Sequence record: PX104380.1
Reading direction: 5' to 3' (one strand)
DNA from: a phage
Length of the DNA stretch: 64,000 bases
Below the pieces are notes generated by a model. It had not been told where the DNA came from. It saw nothing but the letters and a program-made list of their open reading frames with translations, and ran no database searches. Of the stretch, positions 7,914 through 47,398 are shown in pieces (position 1 is the first letter of the stretch; the number at the start of each line of letters is the position of its first letter). Position numbers and translations under genes: made by a program.

Positions 7914-8600
7914 TTAAAAATCGTGGGTAGAATCAGCTTCAAGAGCTACTACATAATTCGCGTGTTCACCTTCAAATTTAGCAGCACCTTGTTTACCTTT
8001 TGCCCAGAGCAGAAGTTTATAATTTCCTGGTTGCATTTTCATATTTGCCATATTGATAATGAAATTAAATGTATTTTCACCATCATAATCACCAAGAGTC
8101 AAAGAATATTTAACACGTGTCAGAGCAGAATCTTCTACTTTATTAAAACCGTTAATTACGATTTTACCTTCTTTTACCGTGATAGCAATTGTATCAATTT
8201 GCAGACCACGAGATACACGCAACAGTTGTTGAAGGTCTTCAGCTTTAATTTCAGTAACAACAGATGCTACCGGGAATGGAATTGGTTTATTAGGAGCAAC
8301 TACTGTACTCGGATCGGCTGCTGGCCAAAAAATTGTTGAACGGGCATCAGCAATTTTAATATTTCCATCTTCTGACTGGGAAATTTCTGCATCATCATTA
8401 ACTAGAGACAGAATACCGAGAAAACCGTTCAAATCGTAAATTGCTACATCAAAATCAATAGTGTCAGAAATATTTGCTTCCGCATAAGTTGTACCATTAA
8501 CTGCGCGAGTCATAATAAATTGACCGGATTTAAGCATAATACCGGAGTTAATAGTAGCGAAATTTTTCAAAATATTCAGTGTGTCTTTAGATAATTTCAT
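7914..8600 (-). CDS. 45: sliding clamp
   Basis: 228 aa, same length as T4 gp45; synteny. Confidence 0.9.
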   Translation of the reverse strand: MKLSKDTLNILKNFATINSGIMLKSGQFIMTRAVNGTTYAEANISDTIDFDVAIYDLNGFLGILSLVNDDAEISQSEDGNIKIADARSTIFWPAADPSTVVAPNKPIPFPVASVVTEIKAEDLQQLLRVSRGLQIDTIAITVKEGKIVINGFNKVEDSALTRVKYSLTLGDYDGENTFNFIINMANMKMQPGNYKLLLWAKGKQGAAKFEGEHANYVVALEADSTHDF

Positions 8601-9484
8601 TTCAATTTCCTATTTACATAATAGTTAGACCAGGACCGTACAGCACCCTGATAAGATTCGTCGTTAAACCCATTAGCTACTGCAATTTTACGAAATTTAT
8701 TATAACTCGGTTTTCCGTAAGCATGCCATAAAGATTTTAATTCATCTTCATGTTCAATCCAAGTTCCTCTAGCTTTAGATTTTCTAAATTTTGATTTGAA
8801 TTCCGGTGAATTATTTCTAACAGTTGCTTGAATTGAAGCTCTCTGTCTTCTTTCAGCATTATTCCATAACTCTTTTTGAGATTTAGAAATTTTTGATTTT
8901 ACACTTTCTGAATTCATTATATCACTAAACTTTTTAGCATAACTGCAATCAAGATATTTCAATTTCATCTTATTTGAAAGTTTAAGCTTTTTCTCATCGG
9001 TCCAGTGATTCTTCATTGAATTAGATATTTTGTATTTTACGTCAGAACTATGTTTGTAACCTTTACGAATACCAACATAATCGGGCGTAATTTCAGATTG
9101 CGAAAGCTTTACAATTTTTCCAGTTAAAACATTTTTATATGTTCCATATCCTTTAGCGCCAATTAAAGTATTTTCATCTGCGTATGCTTTATTAAAATAT
9201 TTTATATTACTTTTTGCTTTAACTTTTAATTGAAAAAATCTTTCCAATTTTCTTGGATCTAATATAGTTTCAGCTAAAATTTTGACGGTATATTTAGTGG
9301 TTTTAATAAGCTCAAAATATTCATCGCTATAACTCGATGACACGCTTCCAGTATAAATCTTTCCAGCTGAATCAATTATATTTGTTCCATCGAAAATTGC
9401 GTCAATTTTCGAACCTATATAATAACATGGAAAAATATTTTTAGCTTCCCGCTCTGGAAAGCTAATAAGATATACTAAATTCAT
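8597..9484 (-). CDS. free-standing homing-endonuclease-like protein (degenerate GIY-YIG, NUMOD-like C-terminus)
   Basis: 295 aa inserted between 45 and rpbA; N-terminal VYLISF...YYIGSK; C-terminal repeats [10 protein letters not shown] and [11 protein letters not shown]; 4-nt overlaps at both ends. Confidence 0.5.
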
Positions 9485-18729: not shown

Positions 18730-19221
18730 TTAATCATGTGTCCACACCCCATCGGTATTTGACCAAAGTCGCTGATTATCTGATCCTCGCCACAGCTTTT
18801 TAGTCGGAAGATTTTTCTCATACTTCCCATCAATAATAACATCAACATATTTAAGCATTTCTAGTTGTTTAATATCTTCAAACTTATATCCTGTCCACAA
18901 CCAAATGCTTTTATTGGGATAAAGATTTTTAATAGTTTGAACCACAGAGTGAATCACGTCTCTGTTATCAGGATAAAGAGGGTCACCTCCGGTTATAGTT
19001 AATCCTTCTATATAATCATTATTCAAACATTCAATCAATTGTTCTAGTGTTTCACCAGTGAATGGAATACCATTTCTAGCATTCCATGTTGATTTATTAT
19101 AACACCCTTCGCATTTATGCAAACAACCTGTAACGAAAAGAACGACCCTGCATCCAGGGCCATTCACAAAGCAGCACGGGTATATTCTGTCATAATTCAT
19201 AATAATATCCAATTTTTCCAA
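18730..19221 (-). CDS. nrdG: anaerobic ribonucleotide reductase activating protein (radical SAM)
   Basis: CxxxCxxC-like cluster (CRVVLFVTGCLHKCEGC); internal Met at 19200 gives 156 aa as in T4. Confidence 0.85.
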   Translation of the reverse strand: MEKLDIIMNYDRIYPCCFVNGPGCRVVLFVTGCLHKCEGCYNKSTWNARNGIPFTGETLEQLIECLNNDYIEGLTITGGDPLYPDNRDVIHSVVQTIKNLYPNKSIWLWTGYKFEDIKQLEMLKYVDVIIDGKYEKNLPTKKLWRGSDNQRLWSNTDGVWTHD

Positions 19222-20027
19222 GCTTCATCAGTAGAATTACAGCGTTTTAGTATAAGATGTCTAGAAACTTTTATGGCATTTGAGCACTTTTTAATTGAAT
19301 CATATTTAATACCGTCAACTGAAACGGTTTTGCTCGTTGGAGAAATTTTTCCATACATTGGATTTTTTGAACCAACTTGAAGTCCTTTTAAAGCTTTTGA
19401 AAGCTTTTGTCTAGATTCCAATGACATGGGAGAATTCTTTTTACCTTCAATAATTCGCTTGCGATGAAGTTCGCGTTCTTCTTCGCTCAAAGAATTGTAA
19501 TATTTTTTAACACCGTTTGATATAGATAATTTATCTTTCTCAGACCGCTCTCCAACTAATTTACTTCTAACATCTTTTCGCTTCATAGCTATGCTTACAG
19601 CTTTATTTAAATTTGCTTGATGCTCTGGCGTACGTTTATATTTCTTTAAAGCACGTGAAATAGCTATTTTAGTTTCTACTGTTTTCTTTTTACCTTTATT
19701 TGCTAAACTATTTTTGTGGCGATGTTCAAGTGTCTGTTCATAAGCAGTTCCACCTTTTCCACCGGGTTTAATATTATATGTATTTTCTTTTAGACAATAC
19801 TCTTCGGTTACAAGTTCAGCTTCTTTATCATACATTTGTTTTTCATTATCAAAAACATGTAAAATTTCTTTATTAAAATTTTTTCTACCATATTTTAATA
19901 AAGCGGCACGAATCAATGTTCCTGATCCCATATAACCGTCATTTATGTTATCGGTGCTATGCGCACCGATATATTCCTTTGAATTAATTATATTTGTTAT
20001 TTTATAAATTATATAATACCTATGCAT
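19197..20027 (-). CDS. free-standing GIY-YIG homing endonuclease (Seg-like)
   Basis: 276 aa; N-terminal YYIIYKITNIINSKEYIGAHS, then NINDGYMGSG; NUMOD3-like repeats ETKIAISRAL and SRQKLSKALKG; overlaps nrdD stop and nrdG start. Confidence 0.7.
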   Translation of the reverse strand: MHRYYIIYKITNIINSKEYIGAHSTDNINDGYMGSGTLIRAALLKYGRKNFNKEILHVFDNEKQMYDKEAELVTEEYCLKENTYNIKPGGKGGTAYEQTLEHRHKNSLANKGKKKTVETKIAISRALKKYKRTPEHQANLNKAVSIAMKRKDVRSKLVGERSEKDKLSISNGVKKYYNSLSEEERELHRKRIIEGKKNSPMSLESRQKLSKALKGLQVGSKNPMYGKISPTSKTVSVDGIKYDSIKKCSNAIKVSRHLILKRCNSTDEAWKNWILL

Positions 20028-21837
20028 GTTTTACTCGTTTTACCATTTCTTTCATTTTACCTAAATTCCATGGAACAACGCTAGGAGTTCCAAGATATCC
20101 GCATGTTCTTCTTATGGTATTCATCTTTTTAGGATCAGTTTCTCCACAAATAGAACAAACAAATCCGTTTTCAGTAGGAGTCATTTCATGGGTACTTCCA
20201 CATGTAAAACATTTATCTACTGGCATATTAACACCAAAATAATCTAAATGTTGTGCAGCATAATCCCATACGGCCTCAAGACCCTTTAAGTTATTTTTCA
20301 TATCAGGAAGTTCAACATAAGAAATGTGGCCGCCTGTCGCAATGAAATGATATGGCGCTTCACGAGAAATCTTTTCAAACGGAGTAACATTTTCTTCTAC
20401 TGAAACGTGGAAACTGTTAGTGTACCAGCCTTTATCGGTAACATCTTTTACACTTCCATATTTTTCGGTATCAAGTTTACAGAAGCGATAACACAGGTTT
20501 TCAGCAGGAGTAGAATACAAGCTAAAAGCAAATCCGGTTCTTTCTGTCCACTGCTTAAGACGAGCATTCATTTTAGTTAAAATTTCTTGTCCAATATCAC
20601 GACCGACAAGAATATTCAATTCGTGAATACCAATGTATCCTAAGGACACTGAACTTCTACCGTTTTTAAATAACTCAATTATATCATCATCAGGTTTAAG
20701 ACGAACCCCGAATGCACCTTCTTGGTAAAGAATAGGAGCAACAGTCGCTTTAACTCCTTTTAAGGAACTAATTCTACACATCAAAGCTTCAAAACACAGA
20801 TCCATTCGTTCATTAAATAGCTCAACAAATTTCTGCTCATTGAATTGAGTTCCAATATAAGAATCTAATGCGATGCGAGGAAGATTCAATGTTACAACAC
20901 CAAGATTATTACGTCCATCAAGAATTTCATTACCGGTTGAATCTTTCCACACACTCAAGAAACTACGACAACCCATTGGAGAAACAGGAGTAGATGAGCC
21001 GGTGATAGCTTTATTGTTCTTAGCCGAAATGATGTCAGGATACATTCTTTTGCTTGCGCACTCTAGAGCAAGCTGTTTAATATCATAGTTCGGGTCGTCT
21101 TTATAAAGATTAACACCTTCTTCAACGAACATAACAAGTTTAGGGAAAATAGGAGTTATCCCATCACGACCAAGACCTTTAATACGATTTTTCAGAATTG
21201 CTTTCTGAATCATTCGTTCAGTCCAGTCAGTTCCCGTACCAAATGTAATTGTTACAAAAGGCGTTTGTCCGTTTGAACTAAAGAGAGTATTTACTTCATA
21301 TTCATAAGCTTGGAATGCATCGTATACATCTTTTTCTGTTTTAGATTGAGCATAATTCAACGCATCAGCGATTTGCCATTTTTCTGCATCCTCAATATGT
21401 TTTGCATAGGTGCGTTTAACATAAGGAGAAAGTACTTTATCTACATTCGCAAAAGTCGTTCCGCCGTATTGATGGGAAGCAACCTGTGCAGTAATTTGTG
21501 CCATAATTGCAGTAGCAACACCGATTGATTTAGGAGTTTCAATCTGTGCATTACCAAGCTTAAATCCGTTCTCAAGCATTCCTTTTAAATCTACTAAACA
21601 ACAATTAGTAAATGGAAGAGCAGGGGAATAATCAATATCATGGAAATGAATAATTCCGCTTTCATGCGCTTTCATAATAAAAGACGGGACCATATTTTTG
21701 GCAATGTGTTTAGACACAATACCAGCCATAAGGTCCCGTTGAGTTGGAAAAACACGAGAATCTTTATTAGCATTCTCGTTTAAAAGGTCTTTATTAGTTT
21801 TATGAATCAATCCTTCAATTTCTTTTTCAATTGTCAT
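20020..21837 (-). CDS. nrdD: anaerobic ribonucleoside-triphosphate reductase (glycyl radical enzyme), uninterrupted
   Basis: 605 aa single ORF; C-terminal zinc ribbon CFTCGS...CSICG and glycyl radical region. Confidence 0.9.
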   Translation of the reverse strand: MTIEKEIEGLIHKTNKDLLNENANKDSRVFPTQRDLMAGIVSKHIAKNMVPSFIMKAHESGIIHFHDIDYSPALPFTNCCLVDLKGMLENGFKLGNAQIETPKSIGVATAIMAQITAQVASHQYGGTTFANVDKVLSPYVKRTYAKHIEDAEKWQIADALNYAQSKTEKDVYDAFQAYEYEVNTLFSSNGQTPFVTITFGTGTDWTERMIQKAILKNRIKGLGRDGITPIFPKLVMFVEEGVNLYKDDPNYDIKQLALECASKRMYPDIISAKNNKAITGSSTPVSPMGCRSFLSVWKDSTGNEILDGRNNLGVVTLNLPRIALDSYIGTQFNEQKFVELFNERMDLCFEALMCRISSLKGVKATVAPILYQEGAFGVRLKPDDDIIELFKNGRSSVSLGYIGIHELNILVGRDIGQEILTKMNARLKQWTERTGFAFSLYSTPAENLCYRFCKLDTEKYGSVKDVTDKGWYTNSFHVSVEENVTPFEKISREAPYHFIATGGHISYVELPDMKNNLKGLEAVWDYAAQHLDYFGVNMPVDKCFTCGSTHEMTPTENGFVCSICGETDPKKMNTIRRTCGYLGTPSVVPWNLGKMKEMVKRVKHA

Positions 21838-28592: not shown

Positions 28593-28647
28593 AATAATCT
28601 CAATTAAAAGGGCTTAGAACCATTATACCATCCTTGGTATAAAGCGG

Positions 28648-29175
28648 TTATGCGAGTACCGTCTTTAACCGTTCTTCAAACTTCCGAAGAGTATTCTGGC
28701 GTTCAGCTCTTTGCTTTTTGTAAGTTTCAATACGCTCTGAAATGAGAGTGTATCGTTCATTTACTGATTCTTTCATAAAATCAGGAATTTCACGAGAAGC
28801 TTTAATCTCATCAAATTTATCAATAACAGCTTGCTCTTCAGCAATTAAGTTATCATACATCAAAATATCTTTCTTGATGAACTCAATATCTTCTTGAGTT
28901 ACACGAGATAACTTAGATGCTTTATCCTTTTTGTACTGTTCGTTAGTATCACGAGACCAGTGTAATGTACGATTTTTATTCGTATTTTTGTAAATTTCTA
29001 CGATACCAATCTCATCAATAATAACGATCCAATTCCAACGGGATTTGTAAATTTGTCCTCCATCAACTGTGATTTCACCTCCGATTGAGATGTCATTAAA
29101 GAACTTGCTTTGTGCTTCAGATTTAAATTTACCATCGTTGTAATTTACCAAGTTGAAAATATCTTTAGCGTTCAT
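28648..29175 (-). CDS. hypothetical protein
   Basis: 175 aa; ATG at 29175 preceded by conserved early promoter/leader cassette. Confidence 0.55.
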   Translation of the reverse strand: MNAKDIFNLVNYNDGKFKSEAQSKFFNDISIGGEITVDGGQIYKSRWNWIVIIDEIGIVEIYKNTNKNRTLHWSRDTNEQYKKDKASKLSRVTQEDIEFIKKDILMYDNLIAEEQAVIDKFDEIKASREIPDFMKESVNERYTLISERIETYKKQRAERQNTLRKFEERLKTVLA

Positions 29176-29203
29176 TTTCTGTTCCTCTGTAGTTGATAGT
29201 TGT

Positions 29204-29233
29204 ATAGTACCACAGAGGAACAGTCTTGTAAAC
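29204..29233 (-). promoter_or_regulatory. T4-type early promoter with conserved leader
   Basis: Plus atagta at 29204-29209 and tgtaaac at 29227-29233. Confidence 0.55.
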
Positions 29234-29235
29234 CA

Positions 29236-29550
29236 CTAAAAGAAACTTCTTTCACAATTTTTTCCACTGAACCACGCGCTCACTGCTTTCTTAGTCTCAG
29301 GAGCAGTGTTATCCATAAACCATTCAAAGGCAGCCTTTTTATGATTCTGGAGGGCTTCTCGGGCTTTAATCTGCTCACGGTCTATTAACACTAACATATG
29401 AGCCTTTCTTGTCACCAAGGGCTTCTTATGATTTTTTGAATACTCCCAATCATTTGTCCATCGCATCGTTGTTGCGAACTGAAATACTGCTTCTTTAATT
29501 TTAGTTTCGTAAATTTCACGAGCCTTTGAGTATAACATCATTACCTCCAT
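29236..29550 (-). CDS. hypothetical protein
   Basis: 104 aa track ORF. Confidence 0.5.
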   Translation of the reverse strand: MEVMMLYSKAREIYETKIKEAVFQFATTMRWTNDWEYSKNHKKPLVTRKAHMLVLIDREQIKAREALQNHKKAAFEWFMDNTAPETKKAVSAWFSGKNCERSFF

Positions 29551-29620
29551 TTACTAGTTTAATTCTAGTCATCTTTTTGATGGCAGTCCATATAATCTAT
29601 TTCTGAACTGCCTTTTTGTC

Positions 29621-30340
29621 TTAGGATTCTTCTAAATGTCTTTTCTGAAAAGTTGATACCATACTACGATACGGTTCATTTGGATACCCGTGTTTTATAG
29701 CTTCCTTTGTAAATTTTCTCCATCCATATTTAGTTTCTTTCCAAAGCTCGAATAATTCATCTTCATACTGCCATATAGTTAAATGAGAACGCTTTGCAGC
29801 TTTAATTCCATTAATATGCTTTTCTTTTACTACAGGATTGCTTAGTTTCTTTTTAATAATATTACTAACTTTTCTAACAAAAACTGGGTCCTTATATCGT
29901 TGCGAAGTTTTTATTGAAGTGTTTAATTTAGCTTCCGGTGTGGATGTGACCTCTTTCATCTTTTTCTTCATATGCTGTATATGATTAGGATTTTTCCATA
30001 AATTTATAGAATGCTTTTTGCATTTTATCCTAGTTTCATCTGCAACCTTTCCTCCTTCACCTCCGTATGACAGGTTAACACAGTTTTTTCCATATTTCAA
30101 TTTACCTGCCATGATATATAATATTTCAGCTTGTACCATTTTATCATAATTATCAAAAACTTCTAAAACCGTTTTTGATAATATGTGGTCATTTGACACT
30201 TTTACACGTTCTATATAATTTCCACTACCAACATACGAATCATTGATGTTATTAGTTATATGTCGACCATAATAGTATTTCTTAATACCTGTCTTTAAAT
30301 TTAATATTTCAGTTTTATAGATAGTAAAATATTTTTTCAT
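29621..30340 (-). CDS. free-standing GIY-YIG-like homing endonuclease
   Basis: 239 aa; FTIYKTEILNLKTGIKKYYYGRH then NINDSYVGSG, the same motif as the 19197-20027 protein. Confidence 0.6.
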   Translation of the reverse strand: MKKYFTIYKTEILNLKTGIKKYYYGRHITNNINDSYVGSGNYIERVKVSNDHILSKTVLEVFDNYDKMVQAEILYIMAGKLKYGKNCVNLSYGGEGGKVADETRIKCKKHSINLWKNPNHIQHMKKKMKEVTSTPEAKLNTSIKTSQRYKDPVFVRKVSNIIKKKLSNPVVKEKHINGIKAAKRSHLTIWQYEDELFELWKETKYGWRKFTKEAIKHGYPNEPYRSMVSTFQKRHLEES

Positions 30341-31473
30341 TTTAATAATACCGTTTCAGCAATTTCTTCCCAATGATTTTTGTCGGTCATAATAAAGTCA
30401 GCAAGATAAAGAGCAGTACGCAGTGAAACATTGCGTAAACGATTAACATTGACTTTCATCCATGATAATGCTTTATAAGTTTCTTCATCAGAAAGACCGC
30501 GCTTTTGCATCATGTCAGTTGAAAGAATAACATCTTCAACCCTGACCATAATTTCTTCATTAGTGTGAACACCCAAATCCAAATAAACTGAGCGGGACAC
30601 TAATGCTTGTAAATGTGGAGCAAGTTTAGTACCACGGTCTAATTCGCGGTCAATGTCAACGTTTGTGATAAAAACAATCGTTCCTTTAAATTCAAACTCA
30701 CGCTCAATGCCTTTTTCTTCTAAGTAAGAAGATGCGGTGCTCCAGCAGACTTTACGGGTCTCTCCAGTGTCCAGAGCAGCTTTCAGAAGATTAAGAATGT
30801 CCATATCAGAGAAAACATCCACATCATCAATCAAAAGGACAGAATTCTCTTCACGATTATTCCAAAGCTGTTCATAAAGACCGATACCAGAGATTTTACC
30901 ATTAATGCTTTTATACTCAATGTATCCAATATCATTTGCTTTATTTAAAGCTTTATCTAAAGAATACGTTTTACCAATACCCGCCGCGCCAGAGATAATT
31001 AATGAACGAATGTTTCCGTTAATAATACCATTCGTCATCATTCCCATAACATTAAATCTTTTATTAATGCGGGTTTTCATATCTTCATACGATTCTTTAA
31101 CTTCTTCAACTTTTACACCATCATATGAAATGTCTGATTTGTAAACCCAAACACCGCGACGTTTACCGTCAATTTCAACAAAAACTTTACCATCTCCTTG
31201 TGCATCTACTGGAGCATTATCAGGGAACCACTCACCTAAGAGTTCAAAGGTTCCAGAGATTTCTTTGCCAAAGTAAATACCCTTATTGATAGTTACAGTT
31301 TTCATTTTATTCTCCAAATCTGTATCAGTTGATAGTTGTATAGTACCATAAAGCTTTATGCTTGTAAACAACTTTGTGAAAAATTTTTGAAATAAAAAAA
31401 GGGAGCCCGAAGGCTCCCTATCATTTATAATAACTTCGATGGTTTTCAAGATAGACCTTCTCAAGGAAGTCAT
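30337..31473 (-). CDS. AAA-type P-loop ATPase (nrdC.10-like)
   Basis: Walker A GAAGIGKT, Walker B LLIDDVD; track N-terminus runs through the promoter; ATG at 31303-31305 with GGAG leader gives about 322 aa. Confidence 0.7.
   Translation of the reverse strand: MTSLRRSILKTIEVIINDREPSGSLFLFQKFFTKLFTSIKLYGTIQLSTDTDLENKMKTVTINKGIYFGKEISGTFELLGEWFPDNAPVDAQGDGKVFVEIDGKRRGVWVYKSDISYDGVKVEEVKESYEDMKTRINKRFNVMGMMTNGIINGNIRSLIISGAAGIGKTYSLDKALNKANDIGYIEYKSINGKISGIGLYEQLWNNREENSVLLIDDVDVFSDMDILNLLKAALDTGETRKVCWSTASSYLEEKGIEREFEFKGTIVFITNVDIDRELDRGTKLAPHLQALVSRSVYLDLGVHTNEEIMVRVEDVILSTDMMQKRGLSDEETYKALSWMKVNVNRLRNVSLRTALYLADFIMTDKNHWEEIAETVLLK
31340..31369 (-). promoter_or_regulatory. T4-type early promoter with conserved leader
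   Basis: Plus atagta at 31340-31345 and tgtaaac at 31363-31369. Confidence 0.55.
31401..31418 (-). terminator. stem-loop between the nucleotidyltransferase-like gene and the promoter
   Basis: Plus gggagcccgaaggctccc, flanked by A-run on plus (U-run on minus). Confidence 0.5.
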
Positions 31474-32434
31474 CCCAGAAACTCATATCTACCTTATCAG
31501 GCATACCGTTCTTAGAAGCTTCAGTAGATGCTGCTTCTACTTGATCAACCACATCTTCCAAAAACTCTTGAACTGTTTTAAATGGATGTTTACCCAGCTT
31601 CACGTCGAGAATAAATGGAGCATCTTGAAGTGGATAAATTAAGTCGCCAGTTTTGTAAATTTCCAATAGTTGGAGTCCACCACGACAAGCATGACTCAAA
31701 GCTTTCCAGTCAATGCCTTCATTGGCTTCGGCTTTACGAGCACGTTCACCGTATTCAGCATCTAATTTGTTCAGTGACTGCTTAAGCTCAATAAGAGAAA
31801 GCGTTGTCTGATATTTACGACCCAACACAGTGTAGAACGTTTGTGGGCCTGTTTTCTCATGATTATGGAACACCCATTCACAGAATTCGTTTTCTGGAAG
31901 ACGATGCTTAATATCTTCAATTTTAGTGCGACGTTGTCCTTGTGTTCCATCTTCTCGGTAGACATTCCGTTGATCAGGAATTTGATTAATTACTTTCAAC
32001 ACATCACGTAATGCAGCTAGACGAGAACCTTTAACACCATATTTAGAAGCTTGCTTGCGAACATATCCTAAATAGGATTTCATGTTAGTCGTATAAAAAC
32101 GAGAACGGTTGTCTTGAATAAACTTCCACACATCAGGCAAATCAGATTTAACCACTAGTTCAGGTGGAGTGTGTAGCATATCCAATGCTACAGTTTCACC
32201 ATCTGCTGCTAATTTAAAGAAATATTTAAGACTGTATAGTTCATGGTCAATATCATCTTTAGTGTTTTTAGATGATGTGTTGTTAGTGTTTTTACTCATG
32301 TGCTCTTTGACATTTCCGATAAGAATATCGCGAGCAGGAGGAACAAAGATTTCTTTAAAATCTACATCAGATTCTGGAGTAGAAATTCCATAAAGATGAC
32401 TACCAAAATAGCTTTTCATTACTGTTTTCATCAT
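31421..32434 (-). CDS. Pol-beta-superfamily nucleotidyltransferase-like protein (nrdC.11-like)
   Basis: 337 aa; N-terminal FGSHLYGISTPESDVDF fits the GS-x(9-13)-DxD nucleotidyltransferase signature. Confidence 0.55.
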   Translation of the reverse strand: MMKTVMKSYFGSHLYGISTPESDVDFKEIFVPPARDILIGNVKEHMSKNTNNTSSKNTKDDIDHELYSLKYFFKLAADGETVALDMLHTPPELVVKSDLPDVWKFIQDNRSRFYTTNMKSYLGYVRKQASKYGVKGSRLAALRDVLKVINQIPDQRNVYREDGTQGQRRTKIEDIKHRLPENEFCEWVFHNHEKTGPQTFYTVLGRKYQTTLSLIELKQSLNKLDAEYGERARKAEANEGIDWKALSHACRGGLQLLEIYKTGDLIYPLQDAPFILDVKLGKHPFKTVQEFLEDVVDQVEAASTEASKNGMPDKVDMSFWDDFLEKVYLENHRSYYK

Positions 32435-32892
32435 TCAGCCTTATATTCAATAACAGGACATACTTTAGCTTTACGAGCTTTTAAAAATTCAACGATAATC
32501 GATTTCTTGGGTTGAATAGGAGGTAAACCTTTATTTTTCCTATCAATGTTTTCTACGTGTAAAGCATAATCCTTTTTCCATTTATAATCTTTATATTTTT
32601 CACGCAAATGTACAGGAATAACAAATGAACCAATAATAAGTAAAACAACCAAAAGCGCAAGTATAAATGCTGATGGAAGCAAAGTCCATAAACTACCAAA
32701 AATAAGCCAGCGCTGTAAACTTTCTGCACAAATAATTGTCAGCCCTACGAGTATAGCACACCCAAAAATAGAAACGAAAAATGTAGGGATAACAATAGAC
32801 CAAAAGTATGCACATAGCGTCTTAGGTCGTTGCCATTCATCGTTAAACAATTTGAATAATTTATAGTGCCAAGAGTTTTCATTAATAATCAT
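32431..32892 (-). CDS. hypothetical integral membrane protein
   Basis: 153 aa with three predicted transmembrane helices. Confidence 0.5.
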   Translation of the reverse strand: MIINENSWHYKLFKLFNDEWQRPKTLCAYFWSIVIPTFFVSIFGCAILVGLTIICAESLQRWLIFGSLWTLLPSAFILALLVVLLIIGSFVIPVHLREKYKDYKWKKDYALHVENIDRKNKGLPPIQPKKSIIVEFLKARKAKVCPVIEYKAE

Positions 32893-46719: not shown

Positions 46720-47030
46720 TAAGCCTTGCGGCAACCTTGTCGGGGTTCCACCTGCTAAGGCAAGTGTTTGTACGAAACGCCGGGATTCGAACCCGGTTAT
46801 TAAGCAGTTGACGCTACTCAATATTTTTAAAAGGCCATATCTCGACCATATCCGAACGTTCCGTCAAAAACGCTACTCGGCTTACGGCAAAGATATTTCC
46901 TCGAATCGATAATTCGGTGCGCCGTTTCTGCTGTGATGTAAGAGGGCATCAATAAACGCAAGGATTATTAACGCAATTCCTTACTCAGGGAACATCAGTC
47001 CGACGACTTACCGGTAGCGACCCGGTTTCT
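46720..47030 (-). ncRNA. candidate stable structured RNA with tRNA-like T-arm, downstream of tRNA-Arg
   Basis: No ORF of 60 aa or more; minus strand contains CCGGGUUCGAAUCCCGG (5-bp stem, canonical T-loop) near 46779-46795 and ends at the terminator. Confidence 0.4.
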
Positions 47031-47380
47031 TAATATTCTTTTAAAGCATAAATCTGTTTACGGCGTTCACGCCATAAATCAATTGCTTCATACGCGGATT
47101 CAACATTTCGAATTGGACGGCATTTATATAAAGATTTGTGATTTTGATATTGCGTAGATAACGGAATTTTATCTAAAAGGTCTTTACGTTCAAAGTATTC
47201 GTAACCATCTAAGCCAAATGAACGATTTTTGAGAAATTGCCAATGACCAAATTCGTTTTGAATATAAATATAATCCGCGTGTTGATAAAGTAAATTAATT
47301 TCACGAAATGAGATATGTTTTTCATATTCATTGAAGTAAAATGTTAAATCATGAACTACTAAATAAACATTACCTTTCAT
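47030..47380 (-). CDS. hypothetical protein inside the tRNA region
   Basis: 116 aa ORF between tRNA-Arg and the structured RNA. Confidence 0.45.
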   Translation of the reverse strand: MKGNVYLVVHDLTFYFNEYEKHISFREINLLYQHADYIYIQNEFGHWQFLKNRSFGLDGYEYFERKDLLDKIPLSTQYQNHKSLYKCRPIRNVESAYEAIDLWRERRKQIYALKEY

Positions 47381-47398
47381 ATTTTCCTCACTTATAAT

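Follow-up and report, generated by a model that had tools for sequence, protein, structure and literature searches.

A probable T-even Seg-type (GIY-YIG) homing endonuclease gene at the nrdC.10/nrdC.9 locus of a Tequatrovirus genome

The phage sequence PX104380.1, analyzed here as a stretch of 64,000 nucleotides (the window), carries at positions 29621-30340 an open reading frame (ORF) of 239 amino acids (aa). As judged from sequence comparison, this ORF is very probably a free-standing homing endonuclease gene (HEG) of the T-even Seg branch of GIY-YIG nucleases, orthologous to RB32ORF093c and located, as an insertion, between nrdC.10 and nrdC.9 of a Tequatrovirus. An earlier note, made from the letters of the window, had described the ORF as having a GIY/YIG N-terminus followed by the motif NINDxYxGSG, like the protein encoded at 19197-20027. 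That description proved accurate: the ORF is intact and the two proteins match in BLASTP with E = 6e-13.

In the ORF listing the gene is a full-length ATG-to-TAA frame on the minus strand. The protein starts MKKYFTIYKTEILNLKTGIKKYYYGRHITNNINDSYVGSG, with the N-terminus reading MKKYFTIYKTE…KKYYYGRHITNNINDSYVGSG. The window belongs to a Tequatrovirus (T4/RB14/RB32/T6-like), and its positions 28600-31500 share 98% identity with RB14, RB32, RB51, T6, AR1 and many further T4-like coliphages. The product of RB14 ORF94, which is named RB32ORF093c, is 100% identical to the 239-aa protein, as are copies in RB51, RB68 and others. Public records annotate the orthologue as 'similar to seg putative site-specific intron-like DNA endonuclease', and the gene has been seg-like in these records since the RB32 genome record DQ904452. 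A literature search found no publication naming RB32ORF093c or nrdC.9.

Membership of the Seg family was indicated by several comparisons. BLASTP against T4 gave significant matches to six Seg proteins, namely SegB (6e-9), SegE (3e-8), SegF (8e-7), SegA (5e-6), SegC (5e-6) and SegD (3e-5), in agreement with the label 'Seg-type' used in the earlier note. The protein also matched PHROG 314, 'homing endonuclease', at 1.8e-30. A word-indexed homologue search gave only 2 matches and an exhaustive HMMER search was needed instead; this identified 1419 homologous cluster representatives at E ≤ 1e-3, of which a sample of 38 sequences formed the family alignment. Residues Y8, G25, D34, Y36, G38, G40, E72, N89 and G93 are invariant in this alignment, while Y23 (at least 90%), H27, T29, S39 and G94 are nearly so, and all of them are kept in the 239-aa protein. 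Its GIY and YIG elements read TIY (Y8) and YYYG (Y23, G25), placed 15 residues apart as a result of a hairpin insertion. In the GIY-YIG superfamily, these elements lie 10-11 or more residues apart.

The core fold of GIY-YIG proteins is a three-stranded antiparallel sheet flanked by helices (beta-beta-alpha-beta-alpha). An AlphaFold2 (AF2) model calculated from the family alignment, with a mean predicted local distance difference test (pLDDT) score of 94.8, has this topology in its N-terminal domain. Alignment of the 38-sequence family with I-TevI by hhalign gave E = 7e-4 at a probability of only 26%, and the register placed Y8, Y23, G25, E72 and N89 on Y6, Y17, G19, E75 and N90 of I-TevI. A Pfam scan of the 239-aa protein returned no family at E ≤ 1. 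Among the 38 family members, 15 match SegE_GIY-YIG (PF19835) and 10 match GIY-YIG (PF01541), both at E ≤ 0.01, and 12 match NUMOD3. Because PF19835 and PF01541 recognize only some of the homologues and not the protein itself, its assignment to GIY-YIG by sequence is transitive only. Searches of PDB sequences, by phmmer with the protein and by hmmsearch with the family profile, gave only spurious low-complexity matches, and Foldseek found no significant match of the model in the PDB. Taken together, alignment and model predict that the 239-aa protein has an intact GIY-YIG catalytic fold with the invariant family residues. The domain search and alignment suggested in the earlier note thus came out in favor of a GIY-YIG fold by PHROG, BLASTP, family alignment, hhalign and AF2, with Pfam blank.

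In the Seg family, the helix bearing Arg27 in I-TevI is replaced by a conserved loop, H27-x-T29...D34-x-Y36-x-G38-S39-G40 (HxT..NDxYxGSG). Arginines R26 and R45 are present in the 239-aa protein and are not conserved in the 38-sequence family. The loop appears compatible with catalysis, since SegA-E have it and SegA, SegB, SegC and SegE are listed as active, with SegD not determined (PMC2988022, Table 1).

The nuclease domain, a helical-repeat linker and a C-terminal domain are strung like 'beads on a string', as in other GIY-YIG homing endonucleases such as I-TevI and SegA, although the zinc finger of I-TevI is missing. Linker repeats 2-5 each start with proline (PNHIQHMKKKMKEVTST / PEAKLNTSIKTSQRYKD / PVFVRKVSNIIKKKLSN / PVVKEKHINGIKAAKRS), and helices in the AF2 model span residues 101-116, 118-132, 135-150, 152-166 and 169-190. 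The NUMOD3 matches of the 12 family members fall in the equivalent linker region, where the 239-aa protein itself has none. The model also predicts a separate C-terminal module joined by the linker, a feature by which Seg proteins are recognized.

The N-terminal signature YxG.H.T...NDxYxGSG ... E ... N..xGG is common to the 239-aa protein and T4 SegA, SegB, SegE and SegF. These four T4 proteins are of the same size class (205-224 aa vs 239 aa), and their genes are likewise free-standing between conserved early genes and sporadically distributed. In addition, the C-terminal approximately 50 aa of the 239-aa protein resemble those of SegA and SegF. Nevertheless, identity to SegA, SegB, SegE and SegF is only 22-34%, and the gene occupies another locus, nrdC.10/nrdC.9, which is empty in T4. 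Compared with these four proteins, the 239-aa protein has a 5-residue insertion in the beta1-beta2 hairpin (LNLKTGIKK) and serine for glycine in NDGY; it is not scored by Pfam SegE_GIY-YIG, and its activity and target are predicted only.

With I-TevI, the endonuclease of the T4 td intron (catalytic domain 1LN0), the protein has in common Y6, Y17, E75 and N90 (Y8, Y23, E72 and N89 here) and the modular plan of nuclease domain, extended linker and C-terminal helix-turn-helix. It differs in being free-standing rather than intron-encoded, in having five helical repeats and no linker zinc finger, in the Seg-specific HxT..NDxYxGSG loop that stands in place of the Arg27-bearing helix, and in an identity of only 18%.

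The limits of the inserted DNA were obtained by comparing the junctions of empty sites (T4 and three IMG/VR relatives, L005, L006 and L007) with those of filled sites (the window and L004). Homology to T4 extends to 29624 and restarts at 30358 by BLASTN (Table 1). The TAA stop of the endonuclease gene sits in sequence common with the empty sites. At the other end, HEG-less relatives finish nrdC.10 as GAG GTT ACT CTT CTG AAA TAA (EVTLLK*), and the ATG of the endonuclease gene overlaps the TGA of the re-encoded nrdC.10 end (ATGA). The GC content of the cassette gene is 29.4% vs 34.8% for the window.

Table 1. Features of the 239-aa gene and its surroundings, in window coordinates.
Feature	Position	Strand	Basis or detail
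Complete coding sequence, probable 239-aa Seg-family homing endonuclease, RB32ORF093c orthologue	29621..30340	-	ORF list, PHROG 314; stop TAA 29621-29623
GIY-YIG nuclease domain (predicted), aa 1-99	30044..30340	-	Y8, Y23/G25, H27-T29-D34-Y36-G38-S39-G40, E72, N89 intact
Linker, five consecutive ~17-aa helical repeats, aa 101-185, NUMOD3-like in character	29786..30040	-	Sequence periodicity, AF2 helices
C-terminal three-helix putative DNA-binding domain (homeodomain-like helix-turn-helix), aa 186-239, SegA / SegF / 295-aa-ORF type	29624..29785	-	
Mobile cassette, 733 bp, replacing 38-39 bp of T4 and other HEG-less relatives	29625..30357	.	BLASTN vs T4, junction comparison
Re-encoded last six nrdC.10 codons and stop, cassette-borne	30337..30357	-	GAA ACG GTA TTA TTA AAA TGA = ETVLLK*
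Sigma-70-like promoter match, TTTACA-17-TACTAT with TG	31340..31368	-	Consensus match only; upstream of nrdC.10

The sigma-70-like site lies directly after a terminator-like hairpin of nrdC.11 (31400-31419) and, from its sequence, is probably the start of a transcript carrying nrdC.10 and the endonuclease gene. Upstream of the endonuclease ATG, no hairpin sequestering the ribosome-binding site was found (fold z-score 0.19). As for nrdC.10 itself, the mechanically called ORF (30337-31473, minus strand, 378 aa) starts within nrdC.11 and crosses the hairpin, and the start annotated in relatives corresponds to 31305 (322 aa). Its product has sub-threshold Pfam matches to AAA/STAND NTPases, and nrdC.11 is a nucleotidyltransferase.

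The earlier note had proposed checking presence and absence in related genomes. Among 503 phage records with the nrdC.10/nrdC.9 locus, the site is empty and uninterrupted in 435, and the gene is found at ≥95% identity in about 67, a frequency of about 13%, or one in eight. Identical or nearly identical copies occur in more than 50 phage records, and the 733-bp cassette is present or absent among phages that are otherwise 97-99% identical. Across 11 carriers, the gene has a nucleotide diversity of 0.009, compared with 0.017-0.027 for nrdC.8, nrdC.9 and nrdC.10, which fits a younger, horizontally spreading element. Some copies are broken: that of AR1 (L044) is frameshifted and truncated to 166 aa, those of RB10 (L045) and RB3 are split into 97 + 113 aa, and that of G157lw (L049) has lost 1 bp and stops at codon 105. 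These copies fit the decay stage of a homing cycle.

The nearest homologue outside Tequatrovirus is from the Klebsiella Jiaodavirus vB_Kpn_AM_K5. It is 46% identical over the full length, is annotated 'hypothetical protein', and lies directly downstream of an nrdC.10 orthologue (74% identical). Here 739 bp (L043 2477-3215) replace 49 bp, and the cassette is absent in the 97%-identical relatives L012 and L024. The upstream boundary falls within the last nrdC.10 codons (…GAAATTGCTGAAGTAAC|), so that EVTMLK* of the empty site becomes EVTQLRG* in the filled site; in both genera, therefore, this boundary is inside the end of nrdC.10. The homologue has the same three-part architecture, locus and clean insertion as the 239-aa gene. 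It differs in genus and host, in an 8-nt spacer instead of ATGA, and in EVTQLRG* instead of ETVLLK*. The ending EVTQLRG* resembles the EVTQLR* with which nrdC.10 closes in far more distant T4-like phages (L031-L037), a hint that the Jiaodavirus cassette brought donor flank from another lineage.

Strong conservation marks the C-terminus of nrdC.10, W.EIAEVT(L/M/Q)L(K/R)*, and the DNA encoding it: 34 of the 37 T4-like loci compared show it. The HEG-less L006 has IATVTLLK, two loci have EISEVT, and the single filled locus has the re-encoded ETVLLK. Because cassette boundaries lie there in two genera, the conserved 3' end of nrdC.10 is a candidate target, and we infer that it may be, or adjoin, the recognition (homing) site. 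It is further proposed, as a tentative idea, that a locus-faithful Seg lineage in Tequatrovirus and Jiaodavirus recognizes the conserved final codons (…W.EIAEVT(L/M)LK*), protects itself by the re-encoded codons, and rewrites the nrdC.10 C-terminus with each homing event.

T4 itself departs from the conserved ending. In its nrdC.10 (L002 16336-16373 vs window 30337-30376), a one-base insertion (ACGGGTTAC vs ACGGTTAC) leads to the end ATGYSSEINS*, and the change is located exactly at the putative homing site; in the remaining HEG-less T4-like loci that were compared, the ending is (E/T)VT(L/M/Q)L(K/R)*. If the proposed lineage exists, this frameshift, with ATGYSSEINS for EVTLLK*, could be a resistance allele.

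A mechanism can be outlined on this basis. On the simplest reading, the endonuclease gene would be transcribed together with nrdC.10 and its translation coupled through ATGA; coupling to termination of nrdC.10 is probable because the ATG overlaps its TGA and has no Shine-Dalgarno sequence. During mixed infection with a HEG-less phage, the C-terminal domain would bind a site in the conserved 3' end of nrdC.10 or close to it, and the tethered GIY-YIG domain would cut nearby, making a double-strand break. Recombination-dependent repair of the T4 type would then copy the cassette and some flank from the donor genome. The donor allele would probably be protected, given that the cassette splits and re-encodes the last nrdC.10 codons.

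Several points weigh against the identification as a homing endonuclease. That the 239-aa protein cuts DNA, where it would cut and that its gene homes are predictions only. Neither hhalign nor MAFFT aligned any residue of the protein with the catalytic Arg27 of I-TevI, and no promoter or Shine-Dalgarno sequence of its own was found before the endonuclease ATG, where there are only weak promoter consensus matches. Comparison of the flanks detected no clear co-conversion tract, with only two fixed differences between carriers and non-carriers (3 vs 4 genomes); MAFFT misaligned the 38-bp filler of the empty site to the 3' end of the gene, and that part of the comparison was disregarded. The low diversity within the gene could also come from the small sample of 11 carriers. 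The missing equivalent of Arg27 and the lack of expression signals of its own would suit a Seg-derived gene that no longer homes, that is, a catalytically dead or target-less remnant kept by linkage and decaying, as would the frameshifted copies of AR1, RB3/RB10 and G157lw and the failure of the Pfam GIY-YIG models to detect the protein. Such a remnant is nevertheless unlikely: the window copy is full length and has its identical or near-identical counterparts in more than 50 records, all residues invariant across the family are kept, the HST..NDGYxGSG segment is common to SegA-E, four of which (SegA, SegB, SegC and SegE) are active according to Table 1 of PMC2988022, and the clean, sporadic presence and absence in two genera argues for recent mobility.

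Domestication of the nuclease, for marker exclusion, for repression of nrdC.10-nrdC.9 transcription, or for local amplification or recombination to the benefit of the phage, is quite improbable. The gene is dispensable, being missing from 435 of the 503 related genomes and frameshifted in some carriers, and no sequence feature tells a domesticated nuclease from one that simply homes; all these functions would moreover follow as side-effects from the same cleavage activity and not stand as alternatives to it. Precedents do exist, in that marker exclusion by Seg enzymes has been described (PMC2988022) and a 2026 paper reports amplification of anti-defence loci as promoted by SegB (PMC13096335). 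That the gene probably shares a transcription unit with the AAA ATPase-like nrdC.10, and that gene and locus stay associated in two genera, also speaks for such a role. A chance resemblance of the GIY/YIG residues and NINDxYxGSG in an AT-rich phage ORF of unrelated function is refuted. It could appeal to the absence of Pfam and Foldseek matches; against it stand the BLASTP matches to the second Seg-type ORF of the window and to the six T4 Seg proteins (6e-9 to 3e-5), the PHROG 314 match and the 1419 representative homologues. The earlier note had named a chance motif, or the lack of a detectable GIY-YIG fold, as grounds for dropping its claim; the significant similarity and the evidence for the fold contradict both. 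The identification as a free-standing Seg-type homing endonuclease gene is accordingly retained as the preferred one.

The second ORF, at 19197-20027 on the minus strand, encodes 276 aa and lies between nrdD (20020-21837) and nrdG (18730-19221). Its product starts MHRYYIIYKITNIINSKEYIGAHSTDNINDGYMGSG (N-terminus MHRYYIIYKIT…KEYIGAHSTDNINDGYMGSG) and matches PHROG 314 at 8.4e-59. It is 30% identical to the 239-aa protein over 158 aa, including the common motif (NINDSYVGSG in the 239-aa protein), and the E value of 6e-13 means that this resemblance is not due to chance. Like the 239-aa gene, it is a sporadic insertion with a Seg-type GIY-YIG domain and NIND.Y.GSG. The two differ in the DNA-binding part, which is a NUMOD3 plus I-TevI-type domain by Pfam in the 276-aa protein and not of the SegA/SegF helix-turn-helix type. 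The gene is found at ≥95% identity in 70 phage records and is absent from RB14. In T4, mobC takes the position between nrdG and nrdD, and SegH has been described at the locus of mobC (PMC2988022, Table 1 and text); by position only, the 276-aa ORF could be assigned to SegH.

The earlier note had read the common motif as a sign that the 239-aa and 276-aa proteins are paralogous. Their place in one Seg family stands, by BLASTP and PHROG 314, and a special pairwise link does not. NINDxYxGSG is a family-wide signature of the T4 Seg proteins: in SegA-E the segment reads HST(D/E)(D/N)L(N/D)DGYMGSG, as seen in the alignment for SegA (HSTDDLNDGYMGSG), SegB (HSTENLDDGYMGSG) and SegE (HSTDDLNDGYLGSG). 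On this comparison, the motif marks no special tie between the two ORFs. That they are each other's closest paralogues was ruled out, since the 276-aa protein matches SegD, SegC, SegE and SegB far better (4e-31 to 8e-27) than it matches the 239-aa protein, for which the same BLASTP search gave 2e-10.

The third gene, at 8597-9484 on the minus strand, encodes 295 aa and is an insertion that separates rpbA from gene 45, two neighbors in T4. The protein is SegG-like, with a BLASTP match to T4 SegG of 4e-14, an N-terminal domain 39% identical to it, and a match to PHROG 655, 'homing endonuclease'. The motif NINDxYxGSG is absent in the SegG-like branch, including this protein. Its C-terminal approximately 50 residues are common to the 239-aa protein (3e-5) and also to SegA. 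The gene is rare and occurs in only 25 phage records at ≥95% identity. The GC contents of the two other Seg genes are 29.4% and 30.6%.

Three such genes within 30 kb had been counted in the earlier note, which saw in them active mobile-endonuclease traffic. The count was borne out: a profile scan of all 548 six-frame ORFs of at least 40 aa in the window detected no further Seg-type ORF beyond these three. The traffic is supported as well, for out of about 500 near-identical phage genomes only 25-70 contain any given one of the genes, and all three are missing from the T4 loci, where rpbA adjoins gene 45, mobC sits between nrdG and nrdD, and nrdC.9 adjoins nrdC.10. The three Seg genes assort independently. 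EC121, the best match to the window over 7.9-20.1 kb, has the other two Seg genes and an empty nrdC.9/nrdC.10 site, while RB14 carries the 239-aa gene without the nrdD/nrdG one. The three genes form a compact natural example of independent HEG assortment and could serve studies of marker exclusion and mosaicism in Tequatrovirus.

Although intact, the 239-aa gene is an ordinary representative of the T-even Seg family. The well-studied model of free-standing T-even homing endonucleases accommodates it, and it has little importance past its correct annotation. Mildly new are the support for the fold where Pfam fails, the fidelity to one locus across genera and the candidate target at the nrdC.10 terminus; the domain architecture, exact cassette boundaries, population frequency and decayed copies were also added.

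Other differences from relatives were observed in the window. Here nrdD (20020-21837, minus strand) is one uninterrupted ORF of 605 aa, and the group I intron with I-TevII that is found in T4 nrdD is absent. Relative to RB14, a 367-bp insertion at 47032-47398 lies beside tRNA-Arg and contains a 116-aa ORF (47030-47380) that matches PHROG 3355 and is not Seg-like; in T4, segB occupies this tRNA region. Finally, T4 has the HNH gene mobD after nrdC.11. In the window, a 153-aa ORF at 32431-32892 on the minus strand, matching PHROG 944 'membrane protein', takes the place of RB32ORF096c, for which the annotation in the RB14 record is 'replaces mobD'.
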